A DNA stretch of 64,000 nucleotides. Origin: Squalus acanthias. Its lineage: Eukaryota. This document shows positions 6,658-52,577 of the stretch, one piece after another. The number at the start of each line of letters is the position of its first letter. The stretch's first letter is position 1. The stretch lies in contig CM059446.1 in NCBI GenBank assembly GCA_030390025.1, positions 42,532,001-42,596,000 on the forward strand, in the 5' to 3' direction. A program made the position numbers and the translations under genes. The notes beneath the pieces were generated by a model. The model ran no database searches. It was not told where the DNA came from and was given only the letters and a program-made list of their open reading frames with translations.

Positions 6658-8185
6658 ATAAGAACATAAGAAATAGGAGCAGGAGTAGGCCATTTGGCCC
6701 CTCGAGCCTGCTCCGCCATTTAATGAGATCATGGCTGATCTGATCTTGGGCTCAGCTCCATTTCCCTGCCCGCTCCCATAACCCTTCACTCCCTTATTGT
6801 TCAAAAATCTGTCTATCTCCACCTTAAATATATTCAATGACCCAGCCTCCACAGCTCTCTGGGGCAGAAAATTCCACAGATTTACGACCCTCAGAGAAGA
6901 AATTCCTCCTCATCTCAGTTTTAAATGAGCGACCCCTTATTCTGAAACTATGCCCCCTAGTTCTAGATTCCCCCATGAGGGGAACCATCTTCTCTGCATC
7001 TACCTTGTCGAGCCCCCTCATTATCTTATATGTTTCAATAAGATCACCTCTCATTCTTCTAAACTCCAATGAGTATAGGCTCAACCTTTCTTCATAAGTC
7101 AACCCCTTCATCTGAGGAATCAACCTCATGAACCTTCTCTGAACTGCCTCCAATGCAAGTATATCCCTCCTTAAATAAGGAGACCAAAACTGTACGTAGT
7201 ACTCCAGGTGTGGTCTCACCAATACTCTGTACAGTTGTAGCAGGACTTTCCTGCTTTTATACTCCAACCCCTTTGCAATAAAGGCCAACATTCCATTTGC
7301 CTTCCTGATTACTTGCTGTACCTGCATGCTAACTTTTTGTGTTTCATGCACAAGGACCCCCCAGGTCCCTCTGTACTGCAGCATTTTGTAATCTCTCTCC
7401 ATTTAAATAATGATGCGGAGATGCCGGTGTTGGACTGGGGTGGACAAAAATGAGAAGTCGCACAACACCAGGTTACAGTCCAACAGTTTTATTTAAAATT
7501 ACGAGCTTTCGGAGCTGCTGCCCCTTCGTCAGGTTTTACCTGACGAAGGGGCAGCAGCTCCGAAAGCTCGTAATTTTAAATAAAACTGTTGGACTATAAC
7601 CTGGTGTTGTGCGACTTCTCATTTAAATAATAATTTGCATTTTTATTTTTCCTACCAAAGTGGATAACCTCACATTTTCCCACATTATACTCCATCTGCC
7701 AAATGTTTGCCCACTCACTTAGCCTGTCTCTTTCACTTTGCAGATTCTTTGTGTCCTCTTCACACTTGCTTTCTCACCTATCTTTGTATCATCAGCAAAT
7801 TTGGCTACATTACACTCGGTCCCTTCATCCAAGTCATTAATATAGATTGTAAATAGTTGAGGCCCCAGCACTGATCCCTATGGCACCCCACTAGTTACCG
7901 TTTGCCAACCGGAAAATGACCCATTTATCCCGACTCTCTGTTTTCTGTTAGTTAGCCAATCCTCTATTCATGCTAATATATTACCCCCAACCCCGTGAGC
8001 TCTTATCTTGTGTAGTAACCTTTTATGTGACACCTTATCGAATGCCTTCTGGAAATCCAAATACACCACATCCACTGGTTCCCCTTTATCCACCCTGCTC
8101 GTTACATCCTCAAAGAACTCCAGCAAATTTGTCAAACATGATTTCCCTTTCATAAAACCATGCCGACTCTGCTTGATTGTATTAG
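6658..8185 (-). mobile_element. CR1 LINE, 5'-truncated, interrupted by a fold-back insertion
   Basis: ORFs encode GKSCLTNLLEFFEDVT...YLDFQKAFDKV and LYRVLVRPHLEY...RRMRGDLIETYKI. (TTCTTATG)-type tail at ~6658. Confidence 0.9.
7410..7624. mobile_element. Penelope-like fold-back insertion (family A, copy 1)
   Basis: Arms 7451-7534 and 7538-7621 are inverted copies (1 mismatch, TTT spacer). One arm has a ~40-nt extra tail. TSD catttaaataat at 7400-7411 and 7620-7631. Hammerhead motif at 7536-7573. Confidence 0.8.
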
Positions 8186-9856
8186 GATTGTTGATTCATT
8201 ACTTTCCGACATGCTTAGTGGTTCCTCTTTGGTGGTAATCAAGCAGCTTTGCTGAATTTTGATCTGTGCAAATGGTTCATGTTGAGTTGTGGTTTGTTGC
8301 TGTTTTTATGAATGTGGAATTTGAGTCAATAAGAAAGTGAGACACCCGAAAGTATCACCAGAAGTACTAAACAGGAAGTGTGATAGACAGGGACAGACAG
8401 AGAGACTGATAGAAATAGTCTCAGTTGTGCTGTTGTTGGGAAGCATCGAGTAGAAATCAAACGTCTCTTTGCAAAAGGGCTGGAGGAAATTAGAATGAGG
8501 AGATTCTACCTTTGATAGCCCGAATAGAGACTTACTCATTCTGCCTTCTTGGAGAAGTTATACGTTCAGGAACAAGGAAAGTGAATTTTTTTTTTAAATA
8601 AGGGTGTAGTCCTTCAAAAATTAAGAACATTTCCCTTTTCTAATGGGCCATTCACCATACTCCAGCCAAGGGGCTGGGCAGCCATCTTGCTTGTAAGCAA
8701 TATGAAGTGAAAGGGAGACTTTTCCATCAATTTTATTTCCCTCCTTATGGGGAGCATTTTAGCCTCCTTGGCCAGTGTTCAGATTGAACTGGTTGGAAAA
8801 CATAAGCAACCAATACTAATTAATTTGCCTGTGAAAAAATTATCTAATGGGCGTCATGACAGGACACAAAATATAAGTCAGCAATTTATTTCCAAACTGG
8901 TTTGAGCAAAATACAGATTTTCGTGGTTGATGTGTATAATGGTGTTCGGTCACAGAGACATTTTGTAGCACTCTACAACACTGATTTTATGAAATCATGA
9001 TCGTTTCCCAAAATGTACTCCTGACGGGCAAGGCTTCCTGCTGGGAGGATAATTTTGTAAAATTGATCCTTACCTGTTCAGCTTTAAGAAGTTCCATTTC
9101 TTGCTGTTGTGGTGATTTTTTTTGAACTTCCTATATGGAGAATCTAGCATTTCACTTCTGCCTCTTTAATCATCTGGGTTCTTTTGTCAGTGCTCTTCCA
9201 TGTTTTAGTCATCTTCATTGACTCACATTGAGGTGGTACCATTGATTTACCTGCAACTGACAATCTGCAGAGAAACAATTACCCTCTCGTTGACCTCAGA
9301 GTGTGCCTAACAGGAAGGAGCATGTTATTGACCTATTTACAGCAATTGGACTGTGATCTTAAAGCAGCAGTCTAAGTTACACAGAGCTTTACCTTAGCAG
9401 CAGAAACTATTAAATGGACAATGCTCCTGTCCTTACAAAACAGCATATTATCCAATTTAGCATGAGCAATAACATGGGGGAGATACATTAATATTTGTTG
9501 AAAATAATTAACTGTTTTCTCGTGAGCTATGCCTATTAGCATCTCAAAAATCAGCATTTTTATATACGAAGGGAATTTGCAAAAGGCATAGGAAAATCAT
9601 TTTTTGACTGTCTATTTAATAAAACCATCAATAAAATGGTTAAAACAGGGGCAGAAAAGTTTTGCATTTGTTTCAAATGCTTCCTTTTCGTTAGGGGTAG
9701 TTCATTTTTTGAAGTGATTCCCATAATTGTATACTCCCATAGCTGCATGGTATTCTCTGCATATCATAGTACATTGGATTCCTATCCTCTTTCCCAGTAT
9801 CGCTGTTCCTCTTCTTCCTTCCAGTGTCATGTGTTACATTTTGTACTCTCAACACC

Positions 9857-10553
9857 TCTCTTCTCTTAGGCAGTCCCTCAGAACCGAGGATGACTTGCTT
9901 CCACACTAAAAATGAGTTCTCAGGTGACTGATGAGTCCAATGCGGGACCTACAGTCTCTGTCACAGGTGGGGCAGACGGTGGTTGATGGGGCAGGTGGGT
10001 GGGGTGCCTGGGTTGACGTGCGCTCCTTTCGCTGTTTGCGCTTGGCTTCCGCTTGCTCCCGGTGAAGAGACTCGAGCAATTGGACTGTGATCTTAAAGCA
10101 GCAGTCTAAGTGCCTTCCCGGATGCTTCTCCTCCACTTTGTGCGGTCTTGGGCCAGGGATTCCCAGGTGTCGCTGGGGATGTTGCATTTTTTCAAGGAGG
10201 CTTTGAGGGTGTCCTTGAAGCGTTTCCTCTGCCCACCTGGGGCTCTCTTGGCATGTCGGAGCTCCGAGTAGAGCGCTTGTTTTGGAGAGTCTCGTATCGG
10301 GCATGCGGACGATGTGACCCATCCATCGGAGCTGATCGAGCGTGGTCAAAGCTTCGATGCCGGCCTGAGCGAGAACACTGATGTTGGTGTGCCTATCCTG
10401 CCAATGGATTTGCAGGATCTTGCGGAGGCAGCGTTGGTGGTACCTCTCCAGTGCTTTGAGGTGCCTGCTGTACATGGTCCATGTCTCTGAAGCATACAGG
10501 ACGGCAGGTATCACTACTGCAACACCATTCAACCTTTTGCTGCAGACCATCAT
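9857..10553 (-). mobile_element. RTE-clade LINE 3' fragment
   Basis: ORF 9906-10571 encodes AVVIPAVLYASETW...LERYHQRCLRKIL...QLRWMGHIVRM and ends in CPTCDRDCRSRIGLISHLRTH. Frameshifted, with an (AAGAG)-like tail. Confidence 0.85.
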
Positions 10554-11221
10554 GTCATCGCTGTAATCCATTCACTGGGTCACAACAGCTCTTTCTTTTT
10601 TGCACCAATTTTATCTAATCAAGGTAAGCCAGAGTATATTGGATATATTATAAAAAGCATAGCATGATTGGGCGATTTGTTACTAATGTGTGCCTGTTGG
10701 TATTCAACTTGGACCCCAAGATCATTTTAGGACTGCATACAACCTACCATTATTTTATATTTAGTTAATATGCTATTTCTGTCCACGTTAATAGATTTAG
10801 GAAAGAATACTAGAGGAAAAAAGCATCCATTCTTTGCAAGGAATCAGTATACAAGCGTAGACTACAACATTTCGTTGGGTTTGAATTATACTTTGATAAA
10901 AATAGGTCTCATTTGGTTACTATTTCAATACATCTGGGACTGTTCATTTGCATTATAATCCAACAGAATTTAAAATCTGCTGGCAGAACTGCCATGGAAT
11001 GCTGTACCAACCTGCTGTGGAATGGTAGAATGTTGGTGATTTGTTGCAAAACGACTGCTGGTCAGTTCAGTGGGAATGAAGTAACTGAGCCGGAGCTAAG
11101 TAGTTCTCTACATCAGTGTGAGGAAGAGGAGATAGAAAGCAGTGCTGCCCATACATTCTCAAGCTGTTCTTTTCAGCCAATATCGGCAGAGCAAGTTGCT
11201 TTTCTGCCTTACTTGAGGAAT

Positions 11222-11522
11222 AAAAGTGAGAAGTCGCACAACACCAGGTTATAGTCCAACAGTTTTATTTGAAATCACAAGCTTTCGGAGCGGCTGCTCC
11301 TTCGTCAGGTGATGGATGCTTTTTTCCTCTAGTATTCTTTCCTAAATCTATTAACGTGGACAGAAATAGCATATTAACTAAATATAAAATAATTCTTCAC
11401 CTGACGAAGGAGCAGCTGCTCCGAAAGCTCGTGATTTCAAATAAAACTGTTGGACTATAACCTGGTGTTGTGCGACTTCTCACTTTTGTCCACCCCAGTC
11501 CAACACCGGCATCTCCGCATCA
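11222..11522. mobile_element. Penelope-like fold-back insertion (family A, copy 2) with captured local DNA
   Basis: TSD ttacttgaggaat at 11209-11221 and 11523-11535. Inverted arms carry hammerhead motifs at 11275-11312 (-) and 11397-11434 (+). The 82-bp spacer is the reverse complement of 10749-10830. Confidence 0.85.
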
Positions 11523-12074
11523 TTACTTGAGGAATGGAAGGGACTAAGCAATGGAGAAAAATACATTTTAGAAATGATAATACTAAAAAGAAAAAAAATC
11601 ATGGAGGTACATTGTGTTGCAAAAGCCATTTCTTGACACTTCTAATGCGCTTCCAATTACTATTGTCACATTTTAGTGATGCTCACAGAAGAACTTTTCC
11701 TGAGCCAGAGATATGGCATTGAATGTTCAAGTGTGACCGCTGCCGTTAGCAATTGGAGAGTGGGGAATGAGATTTTTTAATGATATTTCTGGCTCAGGTG
11801 ACATTGCTGACTTGGAGCTGGTCACTGCACGTGTACATTTGACTTACTTCATTCCACGAGTGGGAGTGTGGAATCAGTAAAAATGATGTATGACAATGTA
11901 GAAATTGCAGAGAGGAGTAGCTTTTATACCCCATTTGCAGTGACAAACAATGGGACATTTAACAAACTAATAATTTCCCAATTGGATTCTGGTCATTAAA
12001 AGAGGTGGCCTCTAACCCAGGTCAATGCGGAGACGGGTGGATTCCAGTTCATATAAACCGAAAAGTTATGCCTA

Positions 12075-17400: not shown

Positions 17401-17517
17401 CTGATCATATTCCTTTACATAGGAAATAAATTTATCAATAGATTTTTTAGACACCTTAGTAAAATTAGAGCCTAGAAATGGCTGTGTGCAGTACTAGCAT
17501 ACAAATACTTAAATGTA

Positions 17518-17873
17518 CAGGGAACTCTCGTTTAAACGGCACCTAAATATCCGGAATTCTCTAATAACCGGCAGAATTCATACTCCGAAAACTACAGTAT
17601 ACAGTCGTTTTAAGTTTTGTTTTACTGTTAAGTAATTAAAGAGTTATGGATTACCCTCAACTGGCATTACTGTACTTAATCAAGCATCTTCCACCATCCA
17701 TTTAACACAACATTCTGCAGGGGAATACCCAATTATACTGCGCATTTCTTGATTTTTTTAAATTTTTGTTTGTTAAAAATAGCCTCGGTAGATATACCTC
17801 TCCGTTATCCGGAATTTTTAATCAACCGGCACCATCCCGGTCCCGTCGGTGCCGGATATGAAAGAGTTTCCTG
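17518..17873. mobile_element. Tc1/mariner Tigger-like MITE
   Basis: TA|CAGGGAACTCTC ... AAGAGTTTCCTG|TA. The interior is the reverse complement of part of 36811-37377. Confidence 0.85.
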
Positions 17874-20864
17874 TATTTGTACGACATTCCAGTCGGCTGT
17901 TTTAGTTGAAATGTCAGAGGAATGTCATATAGAGAAGTTCAGTGCTCAGACACTAATATCACAAACAGTAATTTATAGGCTTAGGTTTTTTGTATATATT
18001 AGTGAAATTTTAATCTAGAAATTGTTGTGATATTAGTGTGTGAATGTTTAATGCATTCATACATCATTCCTCTATCCATCGTTCAACTCTCATTAAGATG
18101 AAACTAACAGCAGAGCTAAAACAACTATTGTTGACCAATGCGATGTAATTAGTAACAATTTTGAAATCCATAGCCTAAACCACCCAGCTGAAAGATGGGC
18201 AATCTGGAGGCTGAGGAAAGGTGACAAAAATAAGTACTAGTCTTCTAAGAGGTAGAAAATACCCACATATTTTAAACAAAAAACTGAAAAGCTAACAGCC
18301 TAGAAACACTGGGTAGTGCAGACAGAAGAATTCACAAACAGGTAACAGAAAGTAACGTGAGAAAAATATGATGATCCAGTGAGAGCAAGAATAAGCCATG
18401 GTTTGTTCTTAGAAATAAACAATTTCCTGAAATTTGGTATGTGTGTTTAAATGCTTTATATAAGAACGGTTAAATTTAAGTTTTTTTTGTTCAAGTCCAT
18501 TATTGTAAAGATGAATTAACATCGACAAAACCTTTAAATTATGCTCTTTTTCCCTTCAGTTAAAAATAATGTGGTTAAAATATAAACATTTCAGATTCTG
18601 CATTTGACCAATGCAATGTAATTAGTAATAATTTTGAAGTCCATAGCCTAGTCCATCAAGCAGTCGACTGCAGATATGTACCCAAATTCTAAAGATCCTT
18701 GTTCTCAGCCTTGCTGTTAGTGGATTAAGAAAGTAAAAATATGATGCCACCTTGCCTGCCTTCTTCCTTGGTTGGAGAAGGATATCTGGGGAGGGAGGAG
18801 GCAAAGATGATACACAATGATAGGAAAGCAAAAAATGAATTTTAAAAAATATTTATAAAAGTCAATCACTAACTTTAATTGGTTAAATATATATTTTGTT
18901 GATTCATGATTCCAAAGTACAGAGTTGAAGCTATAGCTTCAGAAATGAACAGGTCTTGTGCACAGAACTGTTTGTTCAAATTATTAGAAATGTAATTTAT
19001 TAAATCTCGCAAAAGACAAAATATGAAAAACAGAAAGGATTAAGACTCCTGTACTACACATGTCTATTCCTGCAAACTAGTTTTCCCAGTTTCTATATGG
19101 AGTTTCGAAATGCAATGCAAGGATGACAGTTCTCCACTGGTCATTATTTCTGACGTCTGTAGTCACACTCTTCATGATTGACAATTTAACACGCATTAAT
19201 CATAATAACTGAATCAGAACTGGCAAATTGTTTTTAAAATTACTGTTTGAGAAGTATTGGTTAAAAGAAACAGGAGGAACACACCTTTCATTTCATCATC
19301 ACACACAACCCAGTTGTTTCAAGCGAGATTGGGAAAAGATAATCAATGGCCAAAAGAAATTTAATTTCATGATAATACTAACTATAACTGCACTTTGACT
19401 TTGAGGTAAACAGATAAATTCCACTGCAAGCCTAGATATTATCTAGTATCACAGACTGTCATCTTCATCAAGTATTTAATTTTTCCCTTAAAGTTTATGT
19501 AGGCAGACAAAATTCAGTTTATGCTGTCTTTGACTCATTAAGAATTTTGGAATTAAAGACTGCATTTTGAAGATTTGTTATAAATCAGAACGGAGTGATC
19601 AGCTGCTCAGATGGCTTCACTTGGAACAGAAACACTGAATTAGCAATGAATAAAAAAATTAAAAGTAGATTAAAATAGAGCACCATCTTGTGGGCACACA
19701 CGTGCATAAATCCAATGGTAAAATAGCTCAAATAGAGATCCACAGCACAAGCTCTTGTTTCAAAGTTGATTTTTTTTTTAAAATACTACAATTTGTTTTT
19801 CTATATACCCATTTTTCATAAATTTTGGATGGCTAAAATTTGCTGTTAAAAAGGATGTGTGTGTTTATAAGCATTAGTTTTACTGCTCACTGCTAATTGT
19901 AGAGATGATGTTTGGAATTCCATGTGCCCCCAAATTAAGATCTGAGGGGTAAAAAAAAGTTTAAAACTACAAGAAAATTTGGTGCCACATACCAGCAATC
20001 CTGTAGAATTCAAAATTTCAGCTTGTGCACAATTGACATTTTATGCATATGGTTCAATTGTGATTAGGATCCAAATTTATACCAGATTTGTTCTTATTTG
20101 TTTCCCAATTCTTATTTTCATCATTATACATACATTTAGTCAGAACAGTTATTGTGGAAGGTGAATTTCTTCACCACCTTAGTTATGCACGTCAGGTAGC
20201 AAAATGGTTCTCTATAACCCACTACATCACAGGGGTATGGAGCAAGCACCTTATCGCAGTACAAATAGGCCACCGTAGAATCAATAAAATTCAGATAAAG
20301 GAAATTTTCCAAAATTGCTCTAGAAAGGTACTGGGAAACATGACAGTTCCAGGTGGTTCATAAAGTCTTGGTTCAGTAGCAAAATTTGGTAAAATTATGT
20401 GAAAATGATTATTACAGTAAATCATTAAGATTTATACAAGTATTTGTTACAAACCACTGGAGATGTCCCAGTAACATTACACTTCTGAAATATCTCAGTT
20501 CAGTAAAGCTAGAATTCTGGCAAAGTGGTCTTTTTACAAGTACTTTTTCAAAATTCACATCTTTTCTTGGATGTTTTACAGACTTTATATGTGGAAAAAA
20601 GCTATTTTATCAGTATGTTTTTTTGAATTTAATTTTAGTTTGTTGACCATTTCTGTTCAAAAATATGCTTAACAATTGATTCAGGTGACCAATAATCTAT
20701 ATATTATTAGGAGATATACATCATTAAACAGACTGTTTGCAATAATTAAAGACTGGGATAAAATTACAGAAATTTACTATACATTGACAGTTATAGAATT
20801 TTGTTATTTTCTTTACCTTTCTGATTTTCTCCCCCTTATCCCACTTCTCTTTAAAGGTGGTGAC

Positions 20865-23560: not shown

Positions 23561-26500
23561 TTAACCTAACATTTCAACTGTAGGATGATCTTTACTTTCC
23601 ATCCAGTCAAAACCTGAAGACTGCATGGAGTTCATGGATTCATTACAGATTTGCTGGAACACTGCATCATCATTCAGTTCCTCCAGTGTAGTATCAACAT
23701 CTTGTCCCTGTTGTTTACTCGGGTCAAACAGCAGATTTGTATCTAAAGTGCTCAGATCGTTTATGCTGCCTGAAAGATCAGAGGATAACCTGAGATCACT
23801 GGAGAAATCAGAGGCAACATTATTAAGATCTGACGGTACTTGACCAACCACTTGCTGGTTTGGCTGTAGGCTGTCTTCAGCCAGAAAGTCTTTGACTGTA
23901 TTGTTGAAATCCAATGATTGCTCTCTGGTTTCTGTTTGTGCTTGATTATCCTCAGAAATATAACCCATCTGATCATTATTGATGTGTTTTGTGAGGTAAC
24001 TAGGCTTCTGGAATTCAAAGACAGAAGAGCTTGAATTAATCATTGGTTGCTGGTTGGCACTACCAAAACTAGATGTCGTCTCCAATATCTGAGTAAGATT
24101 CATTCTTGCTGTATAATTGGAGGGCAAGTTGTTTATTCCTAGACCTCTTACTGCATCATCACTGTCTGAATCAAGTTTGCTTAACAACACATTTGTAATT
24201 TTCTTAGTGTTGGTTTGCTTCTGGTAAGATGGGAAAGGAGTCTGCATCATAACAGACAAAGGGACAGATTGGCTTCGTTGAGCCATACTGTTGGCACTGT
24301 TATTTGAAAGATTGTTAACAAAGGTGTTGTGAACCTCAGGTGTTACTGGGCTTCCAAAAGATGCCAAACTTGTCCTTGGCAGGTTAATCACTGGACCTAG
24401 AGTACTTCCACTAAGATTACGTTGACGATGAACAGCAGGACTGACACTGCGACACCTAAAATTATTGATTAATGAATGTATTCCTTTGTTGTCAAGAGGT
24501 GCTGGAACTGCAAAGCCCTCCTGCTTATTGCCATTAGCCATAGAAGCTCCCTGGTGTGATACAGGTGAAACTGGAGTCAAACGACCCAACTGAACATCAT
24601 GATGTCGAGACTGTAACTGCATGGCATTATGGTGATATGACTGCATCGTTTGTCCAGGAACAGCAAAGGCATGTGGTTTTCTAAAGTGGTCCTCAGCCAG
24701 TTCCTGATAACTGGGAAGAATACCAACACCACTGCTGGAAACTGCAGAGTTGCTTACTCCAGTGTTGTATCCATTATTCATCCATTCAATTTTTGTTTTG
24801 TCTGGGTGAGTGGCCATAGGCCTCTGCATTGGTTTAACAGGGCTGCTGGAAATGACACTAGCATCCTGGTATGTCATGCTGGAGCTTATTGGAGTAAAAG
24901 CAAAAGGGTTCCTGCATTCAACAGGGCTAGGAGGCACACTACTACTACAGTTCGAATGAGGAGTGCCAATTGGTGTATGTCTGCTGCTGCCAAGAGCGCT
25001 ATCTACAGGTGTTGTTTGAGCCATTCTGGAACTAGGACTTGAACAAGTTTGAGAGCCAATCATTTCTGATGTAGGTGTTGGATTGGGTGTAGGAGTTGGC
25101 GTTGGTGTAGGAGTTGGGGTTGGAGTGCCACTGCTATGGATTGGATGATAGAATTGTCCAGCTTGATGAGATGACATCAGTGTGCCATGACCTACTGTGG
25201 AATGACTATGAGTAGGTATTCCCAAACCAGTTCCATAACCAACATTCAGGGACATTTGCTCTTCAAATAATACTAATTCTTCTACAATACTGTCCTGTGT
25301 GAGATCTTCATCAAATTGAAAGTAGTTTTCATTGGTTTGTGAACCTGAAGGTGTGAGCTCCATCAAATTATCCTGCAGAGGTAACTGGTTTGACGACTGT
25401 GCTTGATTTAGTCCTTGCAGCTGAACTGAAGTAGAACCTTGTAGCTGGTTCTGAGCCTGCATTTGCTGATCATAAGACTGCTGATCCAACCCATTACATT
25501 GTACTGGCTCCCACGCAGACACTTGAAAATCAATGGTCCCCGAATTCCCAATCATATTAGCATTTATAACTTGCTGCCTTTCTGTGTCAGTCAAAAAACA
25601 CTGGTGATTCTTTTTGATATGCTGGATGTCAGTATGATTAGCGATCAGTTTTGTACTTGTGTTTCCTTGCAAACTGAATGAACCCATTTCCAAATCTGTA
25701 GTTTTGTTTTCCCGAAAGGTAGACGTTTGTTCTGCAGCAGTCTGAAGGCAATCCAGGGTTACTATTTGAATATCGGATGAAGGGTTTGCTAATATACGGG
25801 TTATTCCTGTTGTATTCAGTTTAACAGTAACTGTACTGGGTGCCTGAATCATTGCTGGTGTGTTTTCACTTTTTACTAGTAAAGCTGCAGATGGTTTTGG
25901 AGATGTCATTACTGCAGTGCCCTGGCAGGCCTTCTGATGTTCTGCACTACCTGAAGTATGTTCTAAAAGCATAGCTTTCTTCACAGGAGGCACCTGTGGT
26001 TCAAATGCTGAATTAGAGGGAGAACGTTTTCTTGGACTTTTTGGGCACATCCCATTGTCTTTATGAGACCTGGCAGTATCAGTAATGGATTTTGAATTAA
26101 TGCTGGTGCTAGTGAAATTTGAAGCGGAGGAAATAGAAAAAGCATTTTGATTATTTCCCACGATTGAAAAGGCCAGATTTTCACTGTGTACAAACTTGCC
26201 TTCATTTTTGGTCTTTTTTCCTTCCGTTTTCTGACCATTACAGACTTTTGCTGTCTTCTCATTAGCTGTTTTCCCATTTGATATCTTCACTTTTGTGCTA
26301 GCTTCACTATTACTTTTCTGTCCACATGGAGAGGAACCAACAGTTCTTCTAGGATCCTTCAAGCGACTTGAATGATCTTGGCACAGAGTCTGCTTTTCAT
26401 CACTTGATATTGCTTCATGTTCAGACTTGATGACCTCAGCAGTAGGTGTAGTTGTGGCACTACTTGTTCTGGATCCTCCAGCAGGAAGGCAAGAAGTTGC

Positions 26501-26929
26501 GCCAACTCTCAATGTTGGACCAGTTTTTAATTTGTCTGCTGTTGCCATACTGTTGTTTGCTGATGACGTGGGTTTGGGAGATGCACCAGTGTTAGGTGGG
26601 AGAGATATTGTCGTCATCTTCACCATATTCAGGGAGCTAGCGTGGGATGTTCCAGAAACAACAGTTTTTATTGGGCTACCGGCCAAGAGTACTGTAGTTG
26701 GAGAGCTAAGAGTAAGTGTGCTGGTTGAGGCTGGTTTAGGCAAGATTTGATGGTAGCGAGGTCTTGAGCGATCATTGTGTGGACTGGCAGGGACATTCTG
26801 GACAGTCTTCTGTTGCTGCTTGACTGACTGCATGTGTTGAGCAACAACCTGAACGTTCAAAGGAAGAACCTTGCTTTCTGATGGACCTAACGGACTTGGT
26901 GATGTCATCATCTGCCTGCTTCTTTGCAT
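23561..26929 (-). CDS. RFX7: RFX7 terminal coding exon (exon 10), 1122 aa; the ORF-track Met is internal
   Basis: Acceptor TTTTTCAG at 26937-26930. Encodes [11 protein letters not shown] repeat, [28 protein letters not shown] and the C-terminus [12 protein letters not shown], all characteristic of RFX7. TAA at 23563-23561. Confidence 0.97.
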
Positions 26930-27562
26930 CTGAAAAATTCAACGTAAAAGGCCTATAAAAATTATATTTAAACATAAGAACGAACAAACTCCTCAGAGTG
27001 AAGCAAGTGTTTTTTCTTGCACTTCACATCAAATGTAAACAGAAGACTGAACTCCCAACAGTTTTGCCATATATTACTTTCCTGTAATGTATGGCAGGTA
27101 ATGAATTACAGTAAATAGGATAAACGCATTCAATGGAACTACGGTAAAAGTATTCTATTCTTATTTACAGAGCTAGTTTCAAAATTAAAATTACTGTACC
27201 CTCAGTTATTGAAAATATCTCAGTTAATTACATGAACTGAATTCCATGTGTGCCACCAACAATCTTTTTCCCCCATTTTAATTTTCTCCGTAATTCATAC
27301 ACAAGTTTCTGCAGTGTATCATATTCAACCACTTTTTGGTAGTTTTACTGATAATATTGATATTGAATTGAAACATTAGAAATAGCTTTTATCTTGTGTC
27401 GTGGAGAATTTGGGGGGGGGGGGGGGGGGGGGGGGGGCGGGAGTGCAATGCCCTGCATCACAGAATGATACAGATATGGTTGTTAGTCATGAATTTCCTG
27501 CCGAATTCGTAGTAATACTGGGGCAATAGGAGGTGTACATAACAAAAGGCCAACCATTTATC

Positions 27563-27757
27563 CATGATGTGGAGATGCCGGTGTTGGACTGGGGTGGACA
27601 AATGTGAGAAGTCGCACAACACCAGGTTATAGTCCAACAGCTTTATTTGAAATCACAAGCTTTCGAAGTCACCTGACGAAGGAGCAGCGCTCCGAAAGCT
27701 TGTGATTTCAAATAAAGCTGTTGGACTATAACCTGGTGTTGTGCGACTTCTCACATT
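27563..27757. mobile_element. Penelope-like fold-back insertion (family A, copy 3)
   Basis: TSD caaccatttatc at 27551-27562 and 27758-27769. Inverted arms; hammerhead motif at 27669-27705 (+). The minus arm is truncated inside the motif. Confidence 0.85.
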
Positions 27758-27989
27758 CAACCATTTATCAACAGAGTGCACCACCTTCCCTCTCCCCTAC
27801 AGCATGCCTGCAAGCAATCAACTAGACTCGGATCGGAAGAGGCCTAGGAACAAGCCAAAAAATAACAAGGAAATAAAAACAAAAATTGGAAATTAAAAGA
27901 AATATTGTATTTTTTTTCCTACTTCAAGACACTGTTAAATATTCATATTTGCTGGTGGCACTAGTAGTATTTGTTAACAAAATAAAAGA

Positions 27990-28380: not shown

Positions 28381-29665
28381 CTTAATAGCCCTGTGAAATT
28401 TTAAACGGGAGACAGAGAAAACGGAGGTAGCTTGAATGAGTATTATAGTCCCCTTCTTCATTTGTAAAAATCTCCATCAGAAGTAAAAAAAATTTTTCCA
28501 AATTAGTTTGTTTGATATATCAGGACCTCTGATACGATATACTTTTCACAAATTTTCTACTCTTCTCCCTGAAAGTGGTGATTTGTGCTGGGATTATTCC
28601 TCATGAACATCAGCAGGCCTATGATGTCTTGACCAGATCCAGCCAATGAGTGTTGACATGCTGCATGACCACAGAAAGCATCACAGCTGATCCCAATGCT
28701 GCCTTCACCAAACATCCACACATGTATTTTCCAGCAGGATTGCAATCAGAAGCTGGAATCCTAACTGAGTCTTCCTCCCTGAAGAAGTCAAAAGCATTGT
28801 CACCCATGTTGATATCAGGTAACTTCTCACAGGCCAAGGATTGAGTCTGGAGCCTTCCTGATCTGTACAACTCAGAACCACATTATATACTGCAATTACC
28901 CCCACAGACATCAGGCATTCATATATTTTTATGGCTTCTTTGCTGGTAGAAAGTCATTCTGAAACAATCTCTTTCTAATGTATACTTTGTGGCTTTATAT
29001 AGGGTGGATTTATGGTATTTAAGTTTGGAGGGAAAATATCCTTTCAGGCACTGTATAAATACATAATGAGTAACAATGGAATGCTAGGCCTAGTCCACAA
29101 GAGAGGAAGACTCAACATCTTGTGTGCCCTTGTATTAAAATATTACATGCACACACTTAGATAAACAAGCAGAGTGGAGAATCCCCATTTTTCCCCCTTT
29201 TTTGGTTCCCCCAGTGGTTTAACACATCACTATACTGGGAGAGGAGGAAAGTGGGGAACAAGAAGTGTAATCACCATCAACACTATTCCGTTAGGAAAGC
29301 ACCAACGGTGTAATTCTATGGGGTAGGCCAAAATATGGTAGGTCTCTGAAGTGAAATACTTTGTTGTTTATCACTACTCATCATATGAACCAGCCATTTA
29401 AGCAGGGAAACTATGAAAATTAAGGCAATTTGAATGCAACTTAGGGCTTGCAACTGGAAGTACAGTGCTAGAGCAATTAAACCACCAATTACCACCAGTA
29501 AGTGCTACATACCTAAACTATGTAACTTTGCCAATGAAAACTGACAAGTAATTCACAGCCCAGATAATGCATTTTTATTCTGGATTTCTGACTTTTTTCC
29601 CCCACAGCCCTCGTTTTGCTATTCCTTGACTATTCGGTCTTAATATTGAACCGTGAATAACCTAC

Positions 29666-29970
29666 TTGGATAGGACTGGGAACGGTTGCCACCACAATGC
29701 CAATGGTAGGTTGAGGAGAAAGCAGAGCAGGGCTTCCATTGGGGATGTTGGCCACTCCCCCAACAGTGGCACCTTCTAGTTTCTTCACTTGTTGCTCGCC
29801 TGGTAGTGGAGATTGCAGTTTCTGCTCTTGTTGTTTCTTCAGTGTATTTTGTTGAATTTTACGCTGCAACTGTTGCTTGGCATCTATTGATGGGGAAAGC
29901 AGAGTCTTCACCTGGGGCTGAAAGGAATTGCTTTCAGCCATGGGCACAAAAGCAGAAGGTTGTTTCACTC
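29666..29970 (-). CDS. RFX7: RFX7 exon 9 (305 bp)
   Basis: CAG acceptor 29973-29971, GTAGGT donor 29665-29660. Encodes [23 protein letters not shown]...[10 protein letters not shown]...VPSPIQ. Phase is consistent with its neighbours. Confidence 0.95.
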
Positions 29971-30974
29971 CTGCAAGAAAGAAAATTATATCAACTTCTG
30001 AAAAAGATGCACACAGATAACAACAGATGCTTAGTAGGTCATTTAAACACAAGAACCACTAACAATTGTGGGAATGTGCAGCTTTGAAATGTGCAATTTC
30101 TGATTTTGTTAGCTATGTTTTTCATAAAGAGCAATTTCACCCACTTCGTGCCTTTGGCTTGGTTTGTTTGTTCTCTAACACTAATGGAAACCTGCATAAT
30201 GATTATGGAAAGCAATGATGCTGCTTCCACCAATTCCTTTGAGCATATTAGGCTCATATACATCTCCATTTTATTCTGCAACTTGTTGTAGAAACAGCAG
30301 CTCCATGAGCCCTACACAACTAAAAGGAATTCTACTTATCTATTTTTCCAAGCCATTAGTCAGGAAATACAGAAGAGCAGCATTGGTTTCTGCATATTCA
30401 TTTTCATAAATAACATTTAACCTATACTCAGGACGTTCAGCCGTGCTTGTGTGGTGTCTGTTGCAGTTACTAGTTGTTTCTTGCATGTGGACTGTTTCAG
30501 TGACAAAGCTTTCAGGTGTAATTTGGTTCTTCAAATTATTTTTATATGCCATAAGAAATAACAACTTGTCCCTTTAGTTTTTTTAATGCTCAATAAGGAT
30601 GTCAATGCCGGGAATGGAGCACTTTCCAGTTTTTGCATCAAGCACGTCCAGGTATAGTATAGACCAGATGCAGAGCTCTTGCCTAAATGAGGCTAAACAG
30701 CGTAAGGTAAGCAATGAGGTCTCAACACCCTGTTCTATATAGCAGGATATCTCCATTTTTTGGAAAAAAAAGAATGTTGGCAAAATGGAATATATTACAG
30801 CAACTCAAACAATAAATGGACAAGTACTGGTTTGTTAAACTCTTATTCAGTAAACTAAAGCAGGTTATGATTAATTAATATTTTTGACAAAAATCAAAAG
30901 GAACAGAAAGTGTCAGAGAGGGGTACTTTCAGTACTCCCTCATTTTAAACTTGTAAAAACATCAATGTTCTTAC

Positions 30975-35128: not shown

Positions 35129-36810
35129 CTAGAAAGCAATATAACCAAACATTAGACTATAAATATTGCTATAGTAAAAATACACTTAAAAAAAGACAAA
35201 CGAAGCTAAAATTCTCAAATTAAGCAAAATTAGCAATTCAACAGGCTACAGTTTGTTACTTTCTACCACAAAACCACTTGAGATTGGTCCAATTCAGTGA
35301 TGGGAATTAATTGTTGAAGCAATTTAAAAAATAAAAGTAAAATTGAGGGCATTTTTCACTCAGTAATACAAAATCCAATGGTTGGAGCACCACAAATATA
35401 ATCGGCTTTAAAGCAAACAAGTCAAATGTTAATTTATGCAAAAATAACAATATTCCCTTCAATACAACACAACTTATATTTGACCCTGGGACAGTCATAC
35501 CCCAACTCCAGCGGCTTTGAAGGTAAATTAGCAACACAGACTATGGCAGTTACTTATTGAAGACATGCAATTTTGAATAATATAAATAAGTATTTGACAT
35601 AGAATAAAGTTTGACTCCATAAAAGTCTCCCATCAAGTAGAGAATATTTACTTAAAAAATGCAAAATTAAACATTTCATAATTCTTCCCAAATATATTTG
35701 CATACAAATTTCAATTTGCAGACAAACAAGTTCAACCATTTGATTTTTCTGATTCTATTCCAAATTTAAGTAGGAAAGAAACTAGCCATAAGCTGGCAGG
35801 TAGGTAACAGAACCAGGATTGGGAACAGGACAGTTAGGAGAGAGGGTGCAAGATCAGCTCTGGCTGCAAGATGATAATAACTTAGAAATCCCTTTGGAAG
35901 CCATACAACTGCACCAAAAGGCAATTTGGGTGAGGGAGGAGAGAAAGGTGGTACATCTGTAAAGATTACTCAGAAGTTTATATAAGCATCTTCTTTTTAA
36001 GACGGTCAATATACAAATCAACACATTTATAGTATTAACATAACTAGGTCAGGCAATTAAAGAGAGAGTTGTTTTCTGTAGACTGTGCAATGTTTCATGG
36101 AAATTCAATACTGTAAAGGCTAAATTACCACCACCGATTTCCCTGAACTAGTAAGATCAGAGAGGCAATATAACAAACTAGATTGAAGACAAATAACATG
36201 ACAGTCAAAATGATATAGATACAAATCAAATATGGAGCTATTCCCTGTCCAGTAACTTCATGTTTTGAAAATCCTTTGACACCAAAGTTTTAAAAATTCC
36301 AAGGTAGCTGAAACCCCATTTAAGTTCAGAGTTTGGTCTATATCCTATTTGAGAAACAGCCTTGTTTATACTGCAAAGCAGTTTAATCAATAGGATGGAA
36401 ACGAAATGTTGGCAGTCGAAGAAAAAATGGTCACTACTAGCCAATAAGTAAACTATGTGAGTTTGAGCCTATATGCCAAGGACAACACCAAGTCCAGATG
36501 TGCATCCTACCCTGTAAGCAAGGGGTCAGTCATCAATGGTTTCTCTCTCATGACATTGCCCACCTCTTGGTTAATTTACTGCCCTGGGTACAGTGTCTGT
36601 TATGCATCATTGTGCAAATAGTTTTAATTGCACTGGTCTCCTGAATAGACTTGCTTTCTGTACCATGAAATTGGTTGCAAACAGTTGCCCCAGATTTCAC
36701 AAGCAGCATCAAGCCTAAGCAGCATCAAGCCTTAATTTCAGTCCTTCTAGGAAATGAACATCTGAACTTCACAGTCCTCAAACAGTGGTATTGCAGCTAT
36801 AATCAAAGTA

Positions 36811-37377
36811 CAGGAAACTCTTTGGTATCCGGCACCGACGGGACCGGCGTGGTGCCGGTTGATCGAAAGTTCCGGATAACAGAGAGTTATATCTACCGAG
36901 GCTATTTTTAACAAAGAAAAATAAAAAAAATCAAGAAATGTGCAGTATACAGTATTTGGGTACTCACCTACAGAATGTTGTGTTAAATGGATGGTGGAAG
37001 ATGCTTGATTAAGTACAGTACTGCCAGTTGAGAGTAATCCATAACTCTTTAATTACTTAACAGTAAGTGAGACTCCCGGCAGCGCGGGAGAATCAACTCC
37101 TGCTACTGCAGTGTTTCGGACTCCTGACAGCGCCAGGAGGCCGAGTAGTGGCACTTTTGAAAACTACCCCTACTGACTAAATCGGCGTTCGGGGACTCGG
37201 GATCGGCAACATTGCCGGTTATTTGAGAGGAGTTTTCGGAGTACTCAGCGTTCGCGGAGACTCGGACTGCGACTCGGCAACATTGCCGGTTATTTGAGAG
37301 GCGTTTTCGGAGGATGATTTTTGCCGGTTAAGCGAGAATTCCGGATATTTGGGTGCCGGATAAACAAGAGTTTCCTG
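36811..37377. mobile_element. Tigger-like MITE
   Basis: TA|CAGGAAACTCTT ... AAGAGTTTCCTG|TA, with an internal direct repeat (tcggcaacattgccggttatttgagag x2). Confidence 0.85.
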
Positions 37378-38187
37378 TAGTGTTAAACTGGTTTCAATGA
37401 AAAATAGGTCCTGCACTAGCTGTGGCTGGGATTTGTCTTGATTTGCAAGGAAAGCCCAGTCTCAAAACAAGCTGACCAGCTGTCTGTGCAGAGTTCTGAG
37501 GAATTCTGATGAAGTCACCCAAGGCACAGGCATGATGGGCCGAATGGCCTCCTTCTGTGCTGTATGATTCTATGAAGGCTAATGTCGTTTTGAGAAGACC
37601 AATACGCTTTCTAAACTGGAAGCTAAGTAGGAGAAATTAAACAATAGACTTGTCTGGGTTGAGCCATAAATAATTTCTGTAAGATCTGGAATTCCAATAT
37701 GCAAGTCCTGGTCCTTGCAGTTCATGGTGAGCAGCTTGTCCCCTGAATGCATTCCTGCCCCACTGAGCTAACTATGGTATTGCTGATTTGAACTTTTTCT
37801 TCAAAATGAAGAAGCTCAAGACCTTTAAGTCCTCTAGGGCTTGATTTCTCCAGGTTCATCCTTGCTGGCCTCCCATTCTTCACCCAGCCAATTCATAACA
37901 CTACCACCTTTGGGCCATTACTGCAAGCAACCCCAAACTACATCCAATTCTCCTTCTGAACTGGAAGCATGTTTCACAGCGGTTTTGAAATTCAGATTTC
38001 TGGATAGATGATCAAGGAAGGCTTCATGGAAACCAAACAATCATAATCCTTTTTGCGGAGTTTGGAGCAGATTACATACTTCTGGAAACTGGGCTATGTC
38101 AGTAGACAATAAAATTATCATGAACATTGTTCATTCGGAAGGACCCATTAAGTTTTGATGCAGATCTTGAAATCTGAGCAAAGCTGA

Positions 38188-40919: not shown

Positions 40920-43821
40920 TCACACCACAATTTTAGAACAGTGCAAACGTAACAGTACACTTAAAAATAATAAGGTTTTTAATTCACCAACTTACAGAAA
41001 AAGCAATTAAATGAAGGGAGGAATACTTCACTTGATATACACGAAACACCGTCCAGTCAGACAATTGACAAAACTCATGGACTTAAGTATCCTATATATA
41101 ACTGACAACAAAGAGGACCAAAATACCAAGTATTTTTGATTGGTTCCCATTTTCCACCATCCCCCCAAGACAGAATGGACTATTCCATCAAATAAGCTAC
41201 AATTAGAGGTTCCACAACATTAATCATGACTTATGAATCTCAGACCAAATGTGATAAACAAGTGTCTATATGTTGGAATCAGGCCAGTGTCGGAGTATAA
41301 CAATTCTCCAAGGAAGAATCTTTCAATACATGGTGAGGCATTCCTGAAGCACAGATAGTACACAATTCTTTCCAAATAAGTATCTTGCAAAGCTTTTGTA
41401 CTCTGCTAAAAAGGCTAGGAGCTCTCTGTGCACCTATTTGCCAAAAACAAGCCAAATGCACCAAATTTTAACTGGTGAACTCAGGCAATGACATGACTAA
41501 GTAAAACATCAGCTTGCTGGATTATCATCCCAATATATTTATGCTTTGGAGTGTATCCAAATCAGTGTGCCAAAATATAATACCCTCAACCACCTGTCTG
41601 TTCAAATTAGTACAAAATGTAGGACTTCTGAGTTGTCCTTCAGTGAAGTGGCTTTTGATGGATACTGCAAATATGTTCTTGCATGCCTCAAAAATATCTG
41701 TATATAAACAGTACTTTTAAAACTGTTGCAGAGTTGACAGAATAGATTTGAGGTAGAAATCTCTGAAGTAAAACACAAATCCAATTTTCGATTCTTGACA
41801 TTACAATGGTAAATTTAAAAAACTGGTGTTGGCATAATTGAGTTATGGCAAAACTTTGTATCTTATTTTCCTATATAGATTTTAGAACAATGTGATGCTG
41901 AAGCAATTTTTAAAAATGGTGTACTATATGTACATTAGGTTACCTAGTATAAGTATTGCTTTCCTTGTTCTTTAGAGTTCATCTTCCAAATGCAGTGAGG
42001 ATTTGCCAATATCCAAAGAGGAGAGCTCACCTAAAGGATGCTGTCCCTTTAAAGAAAATTATGTCCTTTATCCCTAGGCAGTCACTTTTGTCAGGTGATC
42101 TTCCATCAACCAACTAAGGCCCTATTCTGAATTGTATCCTTCGTTCTTGGACTGGAAAGAACACACTTTCATTTAGATAGCGCCTTTCACATCCTCAGGA
42201 TGTCCTTTGAAGTGTAGTCACTGCTGTTATGTAAGCAAATGCAGCAGCCAATTTGCACAGAAGGGCCCACCAATACCAAGAGATGAATGACCAATTAATC
42301 TGCTTGTGATGTTAGATGATGGATAAATATTTGGCAGAATCTTAATTCCCTCAACCATGACCACTAAAGCGGCAGAAAAAATTATTAGAGACAGTGCAAA
42401 CAATGCAACACAAATTCAAACTAGCAGCACCAGACTAGGGAGAGAACTGTGGAGCACATTTACAACAATTTTCAACGTGGAGACCAAATTTCTATCAATG
42501 ACGAGTCCGACGATACTTGCCACAAGTATTTGAACATTCTTTCACAGACATTTAAGATTATACCAAAGTAGTACAGAGACTCTGAAGACCTAAAAGTTCA
42601 GGTTAGTTGGGAGCACTTTATTTTCAAAGTGCTTGTTATTGTCAGTTATCAAAACAAGATGATAACACTTGATGCAAATTGCTCCAGGTAGCTGCCTTCC
42701 AGTGCTGGGAAAAATCTTCTGCATGTTGGCACACAAAGTGACCTTGACACTAGTAGATAATCTCAATGTTCTCTGGTGGTTCCTGATCTACTAGGGAATA
42801 ACACAAGCAGTTATATTATACAATCCAATTCTCTAATCTCAGTATACTGATGAATTTACCGAGCCTTTGTTCCTTTGAAGGAACAACTGCATGAACAGGC
42901 AAATACTTGAGTTCCAAGGAAGAGGCAAGTTCTAGGTACAAGGCGACACTTCCTTTCAGTGGAAGAAATGTGAGGTGACAAATAACATTTCAGTTCTACA
43001 GTTTTCTGAGACAAGTGAAACTCGCTTAAATTTTCAGCAAAACTGAAGATGTGTTCTTACAATTCTACTCTGTGCCAAACAAGATCCAACGGGTCTACCA
43101 AAGTGCACATCACTACTCCACCCACACGCCCCCCCATTCCCCCAACTGAAATCAGGACCAACAAAACCAACTGTAAGTAAAATTTGGGGCCATGGGTTCA
43201 AATGATTCGGACATCATTTTTTCTCCGAACCAAATTCCAATCCCAAGTAGGAATTAACTGAACAAATAGCTTGACGTCCCAGGCTCCTTTCATGAACCTG
43301 GGTGATCTGGAATTAAATTTTCTACCATTGACAAAAGAAAACGTGCTTATATTTGCCACACAGACTCTTAATAAGCTTGGTGAAAATTCCCAGACATCAA
43401 TCAACTGTAATGCTGCACTGCAGACATTATATAGCTGGAAAAGTTCCATTCCAGTGGATTATTGTTTTGCTTTAGGCATCACCTTCCCCATTTGGCACCC
43501 CATGTCTTCAAAACGGTCACTTTATTTGCCAAAAATGGTTCAATCTCAAAAGTCATCCTATCGAAGGGAGGATGCCAGCACATCACTATTTGTGAGAGTG
43601 AATAAAGTCGGTGTTGAAAGCATCCACTGTGATGTTCTCTACCACAGCAAAAGTGCTGAGCAAATGATCTCGTGAAATTTTCACTGCTCCGACATCAAAT
43701 TGTCATATATTGCTGATGTTATTTGTCTATATGTACACCAAAAGGACACAATATACTACCAATCTTTAAAATAAAATGAACTATTTTCACAAAAAGAATT
43801 GCTGAAAATTATAGGGATGTA

Positions 43822-44186
43822 CAGGAAACTCTTTATTAACCGGCACCGACGGGACCGGCGTGGTGCCGGTTAATCAAAAAGTCCGGATAACGGAGAGTTA
43901 TATCTCCCAACGTACGAGAGCCCCGTACACATTGACATGCGCCTGCATTCGGAGCTCCGTCTCTCCGGGGACCGCCAGCTGACCATCTGTCGTGTCCGCT
44001 GCCTACCCGGGCTGCACATTCCCCTCCCAATCTACACGCTCCGATACAAGGCAAACGCCTCGGGGGTTTTTTTTAAAGTTAATTTTAAACGAGAGATGAA
44101 GGAAAACCCCGGTTACCTACTCAAGAATTTTGCCGGTTAAGAGAGATTTCCGGATATTTGGGTGCCGGTTAATAAAGAGTTTCCTG
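43822..44186. mobile_element. Tigger-like MITE
   Basis: TA|CAGGAAACTCTTTATTAACCGGCACC ... GGTGCCGGTTAATAAAGAGTTTCCTG|TA, a perfect 26-bp TIR. Confidence 0.88.
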
Positions 44187-45004
44187 TAGTGTGGGCAGAT
44201 AACAATCTTTCAACTACTGTCATTTGCTTTCAGAAACAACTACATTTTATAAATATTCTAAATATTCCAATATTCAACTTGGCTTCAGAATTACCTCATT
44301 TATTTAACGAAGATTTCAGATGATGAAAATCAATGTATTAGCATTATTATCTTCCTAGTAGAACAAATGTTCCATTTACCTCCAGGGGTGTTTTGCTTAT
44401 TCAACACTGCAACCAAAATGTTTTACAAACTCCTCACGTCTTTACGCAAAGGCCTCAACAGAAGAACTGAAATCCTGAAATATGCGGTGGTGCTTTTAAA
44501 AAATGTATAATTACTGTTACTCGTCAAAAGCTAAATGCAATAATTTGAACATTTTTAAGATATTGGATACATAATGTCAGGGGACTGTTCCTTGACATTA
44601 TTACCATACCCATTTTTGTTTTAATAACCATGGTTAGATAAACTGATGGACACTATTGGTCAAAGGACTGCAGAAGGGGAGAAATGAGAGATATCTGCCA
44701 TTATGGTTCTGACCAGTAATGTTAAATCTTAAAGAACTATAGAAGCAATCGAAGAGAAAAAACAAGTTGAAGATCACAACTGCAACCTAAAAACCACTTT
44801 AAGGTTAACAAAATAAGCCTGTAAACCTCCAAATTAATCTGAAATTACCATATTTAAAAACAGAAAAAGTCTAATGAAAATAATAACTAAGAAAACACTG
44901 GAACATTTATAGACAATAAAGAATGTAAACCACTACAGAAAAACTGTTCACTAATGCATCATATAAAAAATTCAACCCATTATTAAACTGTGCTTGTTAA
45001 TATA

Positions 45005-45256
45005 CAGTAAACTCTTGTTTAAACGGCACTAAATCATCCGGAATTCTTTAATAACCGGCAAAATAGATAACCGGTAATCTTGCCGAATCCATTCATTTTT
45101 CGTTTTTCCGAGTCCGAGTTTCCCACGGTGGCCAAGTTAGTCCGTGGTTTTTATTTTTTTGTGTGTTAAAAATTGCCTACCTCTCTGTTATCCGGAATTT
45201 TTCATCAACCGGCACCATCCCGGTCCCGTAGGTGCTGGATACGAAAGAGTTTACTG
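45005..45256. mobile_element. Tigger-like MITE
   Basis: TA|CAGTAAACTCTT ... AAGAGTTTACTG|TA, about 60 bp from the exon 5 donor. Confidence 0.85.
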
Positions 45257-45318
45257 TATATTTCTGATGAAAAGCAGCATAACTTATGGCTATTCAGGTC
45301 TGCTAATGCAATACTTAC

Positions 45319-50629: not shown

Positions 50630-51885
50630 CTGAAAGCAAAAAAAAAAAATTAATTAAAAGTACAAATATTTTTTGGGAAGTAAATTAAAAGCACAAGACA
50701 AGAAAGATAAAAAATAAAAACGGGATAAATTCCGCTGTTAAAATGAGACTTCCAAACCAAGTGTGGCACCAAATTGGAGACACGGGTCTCATCAGCGACA
50801 TCTCTACAGGAAAGCAGCCAGCAAAGGCTGAGCACAACCGTCTGACTGTGCACTATTTACCACCTTTTCAGGTAGACAGAACATGGTTGGCATTCGAAAG
50901 GATCTCTGGTGCAAGATATCTTTAAGGGGTAATTCTTAATCCCATTATACACATTCTTACGCAAGGCATGCACAAGGGTGCAGGTTTCAGTTCATAGGAC
51001 ATCTGTTTATGAAAACTGCCTTTCTACCATGAGCACGAGTTAAAATTGTTGGAAGAAATACAACCCTCATCACATTTTTATAGGGTACATAATACTGTTT
51101 ACATCAAAATAGGCAGATTTTGAATGTACTTTTAAGCCAAGTTTAAAAATCTCCATCCCATTACTCAAGTGTTTCCACTTGGGACCTTGTTCAGTTGTGC
51201 ATATACACACACAGAAAGAATAATGTTTTCCTCTGCAACATGTAATCAGTATCTTAAAGAGAGTAAGCAAATTATTCAAGGAGAAAGGGAAAACATTCAA
51301 AATATCCAAGTCAGACAACTTAAAAGACAAAAATGCACTTGACAGAAGAAGGGAGTACTGAGTGTGTTCAGTGCACTAAGTATCATTATTGACACAAAAG
51401 AGCTTCGACATGGATTAGCTATACTGTTTAAAATCCTACTCAACTATGTTGCAATATACCAACCAAATTTCTGGGAAAAGCTATACAACCTCACTCCAAC
51501 ACATGCAGCTTTGTCAATGATGCTGGGAACAGCCAACCCAGAATGCACCTCAGGAAGAAAATAATTTCTCTTAATTTCAGAATATTTGGCAGAGCATCTA
51601 CTAGCTATACAATTATGGTGTTGTATATAGATCATGTCACACCTAATGTGAAAGTAGCATGGAACATCATGTTCCACTTTTGTGATTGGCTGAAGTAATT
51701 TCCTGTTTCGTTAAACATGTTGATTTGCTCAAATACTGGCAGGTATTTGCCAGCACTACGAAAAAATGCACAAGGAACGCATGTAAAACTAATCAATTTA
51801 CTCAAAACTTTTTCACACCTACCAATCTGAAAGTACTACAACTAAATTCATTTTGGTCAGCTCAGCTGAATTACTTCACTCCCTT

Positions 51886-52319: not shown

Positions 52320-52577
52320 TTCACTCCCTTGTTGTCGGTTCTGAACTAGCCTGGCCGCTTCAGTCATCTATATCCCTTCTGTGACAAGTCACTCTTGACA
52401 TTGTCTATCCAGCGCTTCCTTGGTCTATCTCAGCTTCTTGTTCCATGTACCTCTGTATGCAGGGCCATGAAAGGTATTCTAGATGTTTCCATTCTTGAAA
52501 GGTGTCCAAACCATTACAGTTGTCTTTCTTGGATCTTCTGTATAAGCGTTGTTGCTTGTCCAAGCCATGCTATAAAA

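Follow-up and report, generated by a model that had tools for sequence, protein, structure and literature searches.

An 82-bp inverted copy of flanking DNA at the arm joint of a Penelope-like head-to-head insertion, with a template switch during integration as its likeliest origin

The window, that is, the whole 64-kb stretch of DNA that was analysed, contains a short inverted insertion at 11209-11535. The features of this insertion, of the flanking segment that matches its centre and of two sister insertions are as follows:

10749..10830, + strand: donor of the captured segment; unique flank DNA, 26% G+C
11209..11221, + strand: left copy of the 13-bp target-site duplication (TSD)
11222..11312, - strand: short arm, a 5'-truncated pseudo-LTR without tail
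11275..11312, - strand: minimal hammerhead motif of the short arm
11312..11393, - strand: captured 82-bp inverted copy of 10749-10830
11394..11522, + strand: long arm, a 5'-truncated pseudo-LTR with tail
11397..11434, + strand: minimal type-I hammerhead motif of the long arm, with features as in PMC4209133
11397-11400/11431-11434, + strand: hammerhead helix I (4 bp), with core 11401-11407 and extra A 11408
11409-11413/11418-11422, + strand: hammerhead helix II, with GAAA at 11423-11426 and a predicted cut after 11430
11488..11522, + strand: 35-nt tail, on one arm only
11523..11535, + strand: right copy of the 13-bp TSD
7400..7631: sister insertion A of the same family; arms head to head with up to 3 letters separating them, one of them tailed, and a TSD of 12 bp
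27551..27769: sister insertion C of the same family; arms head to head without a spacer and a TSD of 12 bp

The inverted arms (11222-11312 versus 11394-11487) are identical at 89/91 positions, and both differences (2/91) fall at CpG-type sites. The arms are only ~90-130 bp long, and the copies contain no ORF; a parent element of the EN+ Penelope-like type would have one with a telomerase-like RT and a GIY-YIG endonuclease. The 3' end of each arm abuts a TSD copy, and the + strand of the short arm reads as cDNA primed where the left TSD ends. Other copies align from 11395; base 11394 may be one extra base.

The insertion is located about 12-12.7 kb downstream of a minus-strand frame of 1125 aa (23561-26938), whose first Atlas match is an RFX-family cluster (score 0.94), a match of low recognition value with the RFX domain on 18% of the members. 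We take this frame, a serine-rich long last exon, to be RFX7; 29630-30058 (-) is a probable upstream exon of the same RFX-family gene, and a Pfam search gave no match for either piece. A 146-aa frame over the left flank (10814-11254) also lacked a Pfam match and was taken as chance. Four short MITE-like elements with TIRs and TA ends, all related to each other and presumably Tigger-like, are present at 17516-17878, 36806-37379, 43817-44188 and 45003-45261. In addition, two direct duplications were observed: one of 95 nt, 94% alike, around ~710 bp (47212-47306 and 48017-48109), which may be an unusually long TSD, and one of 58 nt, 88% alike and 473 bp apart (18131-18188 and 18604-18661), which is perhaps an older local copy.

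For comparison with other samples, we used four of the 24 listed runs, all consisting of short-read contigs: X1 (sample S1), X5 (sample S2, from another study), X6 (organism B) and X22 (organism L). Rows X9-X21, which have small shares, were left out of this comparison.

All three copies of the family in the window consist of two inverted arms between TSD copies, which measure 12, 13 and 12 bp. In each of them one arm extends to the end of the tail, the other stops 35 nt short of it at a fixed site, and both abut a TSD copy; the inner arm ends vary among the copies. Many head-to-head joints with variable ends were found in 4/4 runs (15 of the 126 joint rows are listed). In copy C, the tail is present only on the long arm and the hammerhead core only on the short arm. 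Copy A lies within a LINE fragment (frame 6824-7402), and its short arm shares ~5 letters with the TSD. According to PMC8557442 and PMC3846280, insertions of Penelope-like elements (PLEs) are marked by an inverted 5'-truncated copy, a tail of 30-40 bp at one end and a short TSD. The first-pass annotation had called the unit a fold-back element; what we find is instead two 5'-truncated pseudo-LTRs of a Penelope-like retroelement, arranged head to head. Judged from its sequence, the unit behaves as a doubly truncated PLE insertion would and very probably is one, and not a Foldback or MITE transposon. A second Penelope-like family is represented by an inverted unit at 51876-52329, which has its own hammerhead-like motif, a TSD of 11 bp and one tailed arm, and by a single-arm relative at 2730-2931. 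The centre of the inverted unit (52030-52200) showed no match longer than ~20 nt elsewhere in the window and is not flank-derived.

The hammerhead core is present in 5/6 arms of the three copies, the long arm of copy C being cut within it. PLE hammerheads are described as having an extra base before helix II, a G10.1-C11.1 pair, a palindromic 15.2-16.2 and a helix I of 4-5 bp (PMC4209133); the corresponding features here are A11408 before helix II, the pair G11409-C11422, the palindromic GC at 11427-11428 and a helix I of 4 bp. Helix II has 5 bp, versus 7-8 bp given for Schistosoma in the same source, and its start is located 114 nt from the tail end. The pairing is kept in 40/40 cells over four arms, with one compensatory and one G-U change. 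This covariation is not significant, as 131/500 shuffles reach the same pairing, and the sole compensatory change falls at the joint of copy A and is therefore weak evidence. That change is the compensatory pair by which helix I of copy A differs. An Rfam search of the window at gathering thresholds gave 0 matches, and single-strand folds of single arms neither recovered the hammerhead nor stood out from shuffles (z of -0.6 to -1.4). Searches for other copies in viral contigs, metagenome contigs and prokaryote genomes yielded 0 loci. Tandem hammerhead repeats are the subject of 10.64898/2026.07.22.740005.

In the assembly, the 82 bp at 11312-11393 are the reverse complement of 10749-10830 at 82/82 letters, and the match ends there on both sides. 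The chance expectation for such an inverted match in a 64-kb window is ~1e-37, and except for the donor, no common word of at least 13 letters was found between the spacer and the rest of the window. The spacer sits exactly at the arm joint, inside the 13-bp TSD, as the first-pass annotation had seen, and the distance that it had put at ~380 bp outside the insertion is 378 bp when measured from the donor end to the left TSD copy. Base 11312 fits both the short arm and the donor, which gives a microhomology of 1 nt at the left joint; the right joint is blunt, with 0 nt shared. The 1-nt overlap is equalled by 306/1012 flank positions, and a search for better priming sites in the flank did not support microhomology at the observed site. 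The donor is present in 4/4 runs, with single-copy depths of 16.3 in X1 and 21.8 in X5.

The first-pass reading would have failed had the 82-mer belonged to the element consensus. It does not: both sister copies lack it, and the bin that contains only spacer (11343-11389) has a depth of 7.14 in X1 and of 0 in X5, X6 and X22 (zeros that are no proof of absence, X5 having been read to ~55%), versus 0.5-3.6 million in the arm bins 11249-11295 and 11437-11483 of the four runs. Other copies join their arms directly or via 1-8 letters (12 of 170 joint rows listed, in tables that are blind to long unique spacers at other loci). The spacer-less joint of 11312 to 11395 was found in 4/4 runs, with 10 contigs in X1, and as far as can be told, these joints belong to other loci. 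Within the window, a long spacer is present in one of the three family copies, and none is present in the second-family unit (51887-52318).

The contigs also cover the outer joints of the insertion. In both X1 and X5, a single contig spans 10476-11245 with 0 other letters, passing the left TSD and reaching 24 letters into the arm, and another contig of X1 over 11499-11850 crosses the right TSD, again with 0 other letters. These overlaps are shorter than the 31 letters set for a bridge. They fit an insertion that is present in both samples, S1 and S2. The lack of cover in X5 at 11578-11765 has no meaning, as this run was read to ~55%, and X6 has no cover at the site and cannot date the insertion.

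The spacer joints are a different matter, since both rest on the assembly and are unconfirmed in the contigs of other samples. Among the listed contigs of the four runs, none crosses either spacer joint, and neither these joints nor a locus-specific spacer-less allele were seen. The donor contigs in X1 and X5 run through without a break, whereas a graph of 31-mers would be expected to branch at an exact repeat of 82 nt. Moreover, S1 holds 0.94 of the sampled words; the expected share is 0.939 with both spacer joints and a 2-letter indel absent, and 0.98 for the indel alone (P about 0.01). The depth of 7.14 in the spacer bin of X1 could stem either from a single-copy joint contig (12.9 over 26 bases) or from a chance extension of another copy. 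Contig building commonly prunes short connections between unique DNA and a very deep repeat, and such pruning, a spacer-less allele or an artefact would each explain the missing joint contigs. The indel concerns two letters after 11114 that are absent from the window and carried by 4/4 runs, two other organisms included; it is either a private allele or an assembly slip.

The perfect identity of spacer and donor had been read as a sign of a recent event, which is an overstatement. Zero differences in 82 letters allow up to 3.6% divergence at 95%, the arms differ at 2/91 positions, and the left joint of the element is common to two samples from two studies. With the mutation rate of the epaulette shark, another species (7e-10 per base per generation; PMC10587355), the 3.6% bound corresponds by simple arithmetic to ~25 million generations. 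Organism L (X22) has 32 other letters in ~715 and shows neither joint; its left contig fits until 11206 and its right contig from 11523. At three donor positions organism L has other letters than the window, and at all three the spacer agrees with the window. Taken together, the missing joints and the donor differences place the spacer copy probably after the split from organism L; the element is shared within organism A. The insertion is young on the scale of species and not a fresh event. In X22, 26 and 39 letters beside the site do not match the element or, in the listed contigs, the other flank; organism L may carry a different small change at the same spot.

We favour, with a probability of about 0.6, the reading that both nicks primed cDNA and that one free 3' end copied 82 nt of the flank before the ends were joined. 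The PLE would cut both strands 13 bp apart, and each 3' end would prime cDNA on the element RNA, the long arm, with its tail, starting at the distal site and the short arm, without tail, at the proximal site. Both cDNAs would stop just past the hammerhead. Their free 3' ends would then have to be joined head to head, and before this happened, one of them would copy 82 nt from the left flank with hardly any base pairing. This could occur in two ways. The short-arm cDNA could fold back on its own strand through a 482-nt loop, in which case that strand must be unpaired, or the long-arm cDNA could invade the left flank, copy toward the break and in the last step jump to the end of the short-arm cDNA through the single base that they share. 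Only the donor + strand, which carries the short-arm cDNA, can have served as template for the + strand of the spacer, and this would correspond to the fold-back route; in the other route, the long-arm cDNA would copy the opposite strand of the donor. The final sequence would be the same for both routes and does not separate them. The copying enzyme might be the RT of the element or a host repair polymerase.

Several observations are consistent with this proposal. [quoted passage not shown] In copy C, each arm has sequence that the other lacks, so that neither would have been copied from the other, unless a later central deletion trimmed this copy. Most simply, the centre of the palindrome would be the place where two cDNA 3' ends met. 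Other copies have the same two arm ends joined without a spacer, so that the unit need not have lost any arm sequence. The lack of microhomology would suit an RT jump or end joining better than microhomology-primed repair (PMC11331408, PMC11724301). Counting against the proposal, templates at L1 insertions are mostly at most 15 bp from the site and here the distance is 378 bp; the case is a single one, and no PLE ORF linked to the arms was found. The unspanned spacer joints, the unbroken donor contigs, the word share of S1, the 37-nt copy nearby and the lower divergence of the spacer than of the arms also speak against it. The first-pass annotation had suggested that a polymerase switched template while the arms were being joined at integration. 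This is partly supported: there is a local templated copy at the arm joint that is absent from the element, and a switch during integration is the likeliest origin of the spacer. Its timing is less secure, since a later event at the centre of the palindrome would yield an identical product and since a 37-nt local copy nearby lies off insertion ends. What the first-pass annotation lacked is the identity of the element as Penelope-like, with arms that would be two cDNAs, and it is this that makes the joint informative.

This 37-nt copy (10075-10111) is an exact direct repeat of 9341-9377, 734 bp apart, and lies 0.6 kb from the donor in a LINE fragment (9906-10571), which we take to be RTE-like and whose best homolog is from the shark Pristiophorus japonicus; by this match, the window resembles a locus of a cartilaginous fish. 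It makes an 11-residue insertion that is absent in 5/5 aligned homologs (five of nine matches were aligned). As it is located off the ends of that LINE, local templated copies can arise here away from insertion ends. Together with the fragility of palindrome centres, this keeps alive an account in which the element landed as a near-perfect 90-bp palindrome and a later break at the hairpin tip, or a template switch in replication, added 82 nt. The patch would then have come from 480 nt away, and the spacer would have stabilised the palindrome. We judge such a later origin to be unlikely, with points on either side. The centres of palindromes are prone to breakage and revision, which spacers of 35-52 bp suppress (PMC8701086); moreover, templated fold-back inversions of up to ~150 bp occur in yeast at ordinary breaks (PMC11724301). 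The arms differ at 2/91 positions and spacer and donor at 0/82, which is the direction that a later capture predicts (P about 0.16 at equal rates), and a spacer-less allele would explain why no spacer joints appear in the contigs of S1 or S2. However, deletions made up 93% of 118 revisions of a mouse palindrome (PMC8701086) and here both arm ends match a joint type that other copies show; copies A and C persist without spacers; and the microhomology-primed fold-backs of yeast used inverted microhomologies of 10 nt (PMC11724301), as against 0-1 nt here.

An artefact of assembly or library, in which a hairpin centre that is hard to sequence was filled by a local read, appears quite improbable. 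It would account for the unspanned spacer joints, the unbroken donor contigs in X1 and X5, the word share of 0.94 and the two letters that are missing after 11114. But the spacer joints overlap by 0-1 nt, which leaves an assembler nothing to join on, both outer joints match X1 contigs without other letters, and the X1 depth in the spacer bin is what a single-copy joint contig gives (a chance extension would give it too); the pruning described above could likewise account for the missing links. PLE inverted structures are known to cause trouble in short-read assemblies (PMC8557442).

Even less probable, in our view, is that the RT jumped from the element RNA to a local host transcript and copied its 82 nt from RNA instead of DNA. 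Joints with an 'extra template' exist for R2 (PMC11331408), a blunt joint suits an end-to-end jump to RNA, and read-through RNA of the right sense is possible at a site 12.7 kb downstream of the minus-strand RFX-like exon. A free RNA, however, need not originate within 0.4 kb, and none of the 24 listed runs is recorded as RNA, in a search directed at DNA. Finally, a Foldback- or MITE-type DNA transposon with the 82-mer as a regular internal segment, a type that inverted arms with a TSD would resemble, has a negligible chance: it is refuted by the spacer versus arm depths in the run contigs, the sister copies lack the 82-mer, the ends are unequal (tail on one arm) and the inner ends variable, unlike equal TIRs, and the spacer is unique and not a shared internal sequence.

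The completion of PLE integration and the formation of the inverted units are described as open questions in PMC11167929 and PMC8557442. If target-flank DNA was laid down at the centre of the unit at integration, a free 3' end was available to the joint at the target, and this would favour two-ended priming over a self-primed hairpin. As a generalization that we hold to be doubtful, head-to-head Penelope palindromes could be separately primed cDNAs joined on the chromosome, and not hairpins formed beforehand, with an RT that jumps without homology to host DNA hundreds of bases away. In that case, flank-derived spacers would be a recurrent footprint across a very large PLE family, and the side and strand of such spacers would map how integration finishes, a step still described as unvalidated. 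The captured spacer is of value in that it suggests a cheap genome-wide test of how PLE insertions finish. As a single case, it is a small addition to the known L1 and R2 junction types, and there is no sign of a host function. Both the copying slip and the element that holds it belong to known kinds; the combination, flank capture at a PLE head-to-head joint, was not found described in the openly available literature.

Among known systems, fold-back insertions at double-strand breaks (DSBs), made by Pol delta together with end joining in yeast and by Pol theta in mammals, resemble the present case in that they are inverted local copies of up to ~150 bp whose second end is captured with 0-5 nt of microhomology (PMC11724301). 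They start at a clear inverted microhomology beside the break, whereas here there is 0-1 nt at a distance of 480 nt, and Pol theta products are typically up to ~30 nt long, versus 82 nt here (PMC11724301). In the 'snap-back' 5' junctions of R2, a cDNA 3' end is likewise extended on a strand of nearby DNA, so that the added sequence is its reverse complement, and the joins have little microhomology, but one cDNA is joined to the target, while here the copy lies between two cDNAs (PMC11331408). For L1, 22 templated insertions are reported, most of them shorter than 250 bp and no more than 15 bp from the site (10.1101/2024.08.27.596794); PMC11702581 adds another three. Common to L1 templated insertion or twin priming and to the present unit are a short local duplicate, arms from both nicks and a TSD that is kept; the L1 arms are different parts of one RNA, whereas both arms here are the same pseudo-LTR, and the typical L1 template distance of at most 15 bp contrasts with 378 bp (10.1101/2024.08.27.596794; PMC11702581).

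The closest likeness is to PLEs themselves. The anole PLE protein, Poseidon PAc, nicks and extends both strands in vitro without a need for homology, and it starts at two internal sites that bound the tail (PMC11167929). Its distal start is located 111-118 nt from the start of helix II, compared with 114 nt here; the joining of two cDNAs and the copying of flank are not treated for PAc in the part of PMC11167929 drawn on here. The head-to-head insertions of EN+ Penelope-like elements (Penelope/Poseidon, Neptune and Pen of Adineta vaga) have the same truncated inverted copy, tail, TSD and hammerhead (PMC8557442, PMC3846280). The tail of 35 nt in 3/3 copies falls within the 30-40 bp of known PLEs (PMC8557442, PMC3846280), and the TSDs of 12-13 bp compare with 8-10 bp in A. 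vaga (PMC3846280). For head-to-head palindromes, PMC3846280 favours self-priming on an antisense template. In A. vaga, unrelated host DNA is captured between solo pLTRs inside TSDs and, in the parts of PMC3846280 cited here, is not traced to the flank. In the unit at 11209-11535, in contrast, the captured DNA is traced to the flank of the target site.
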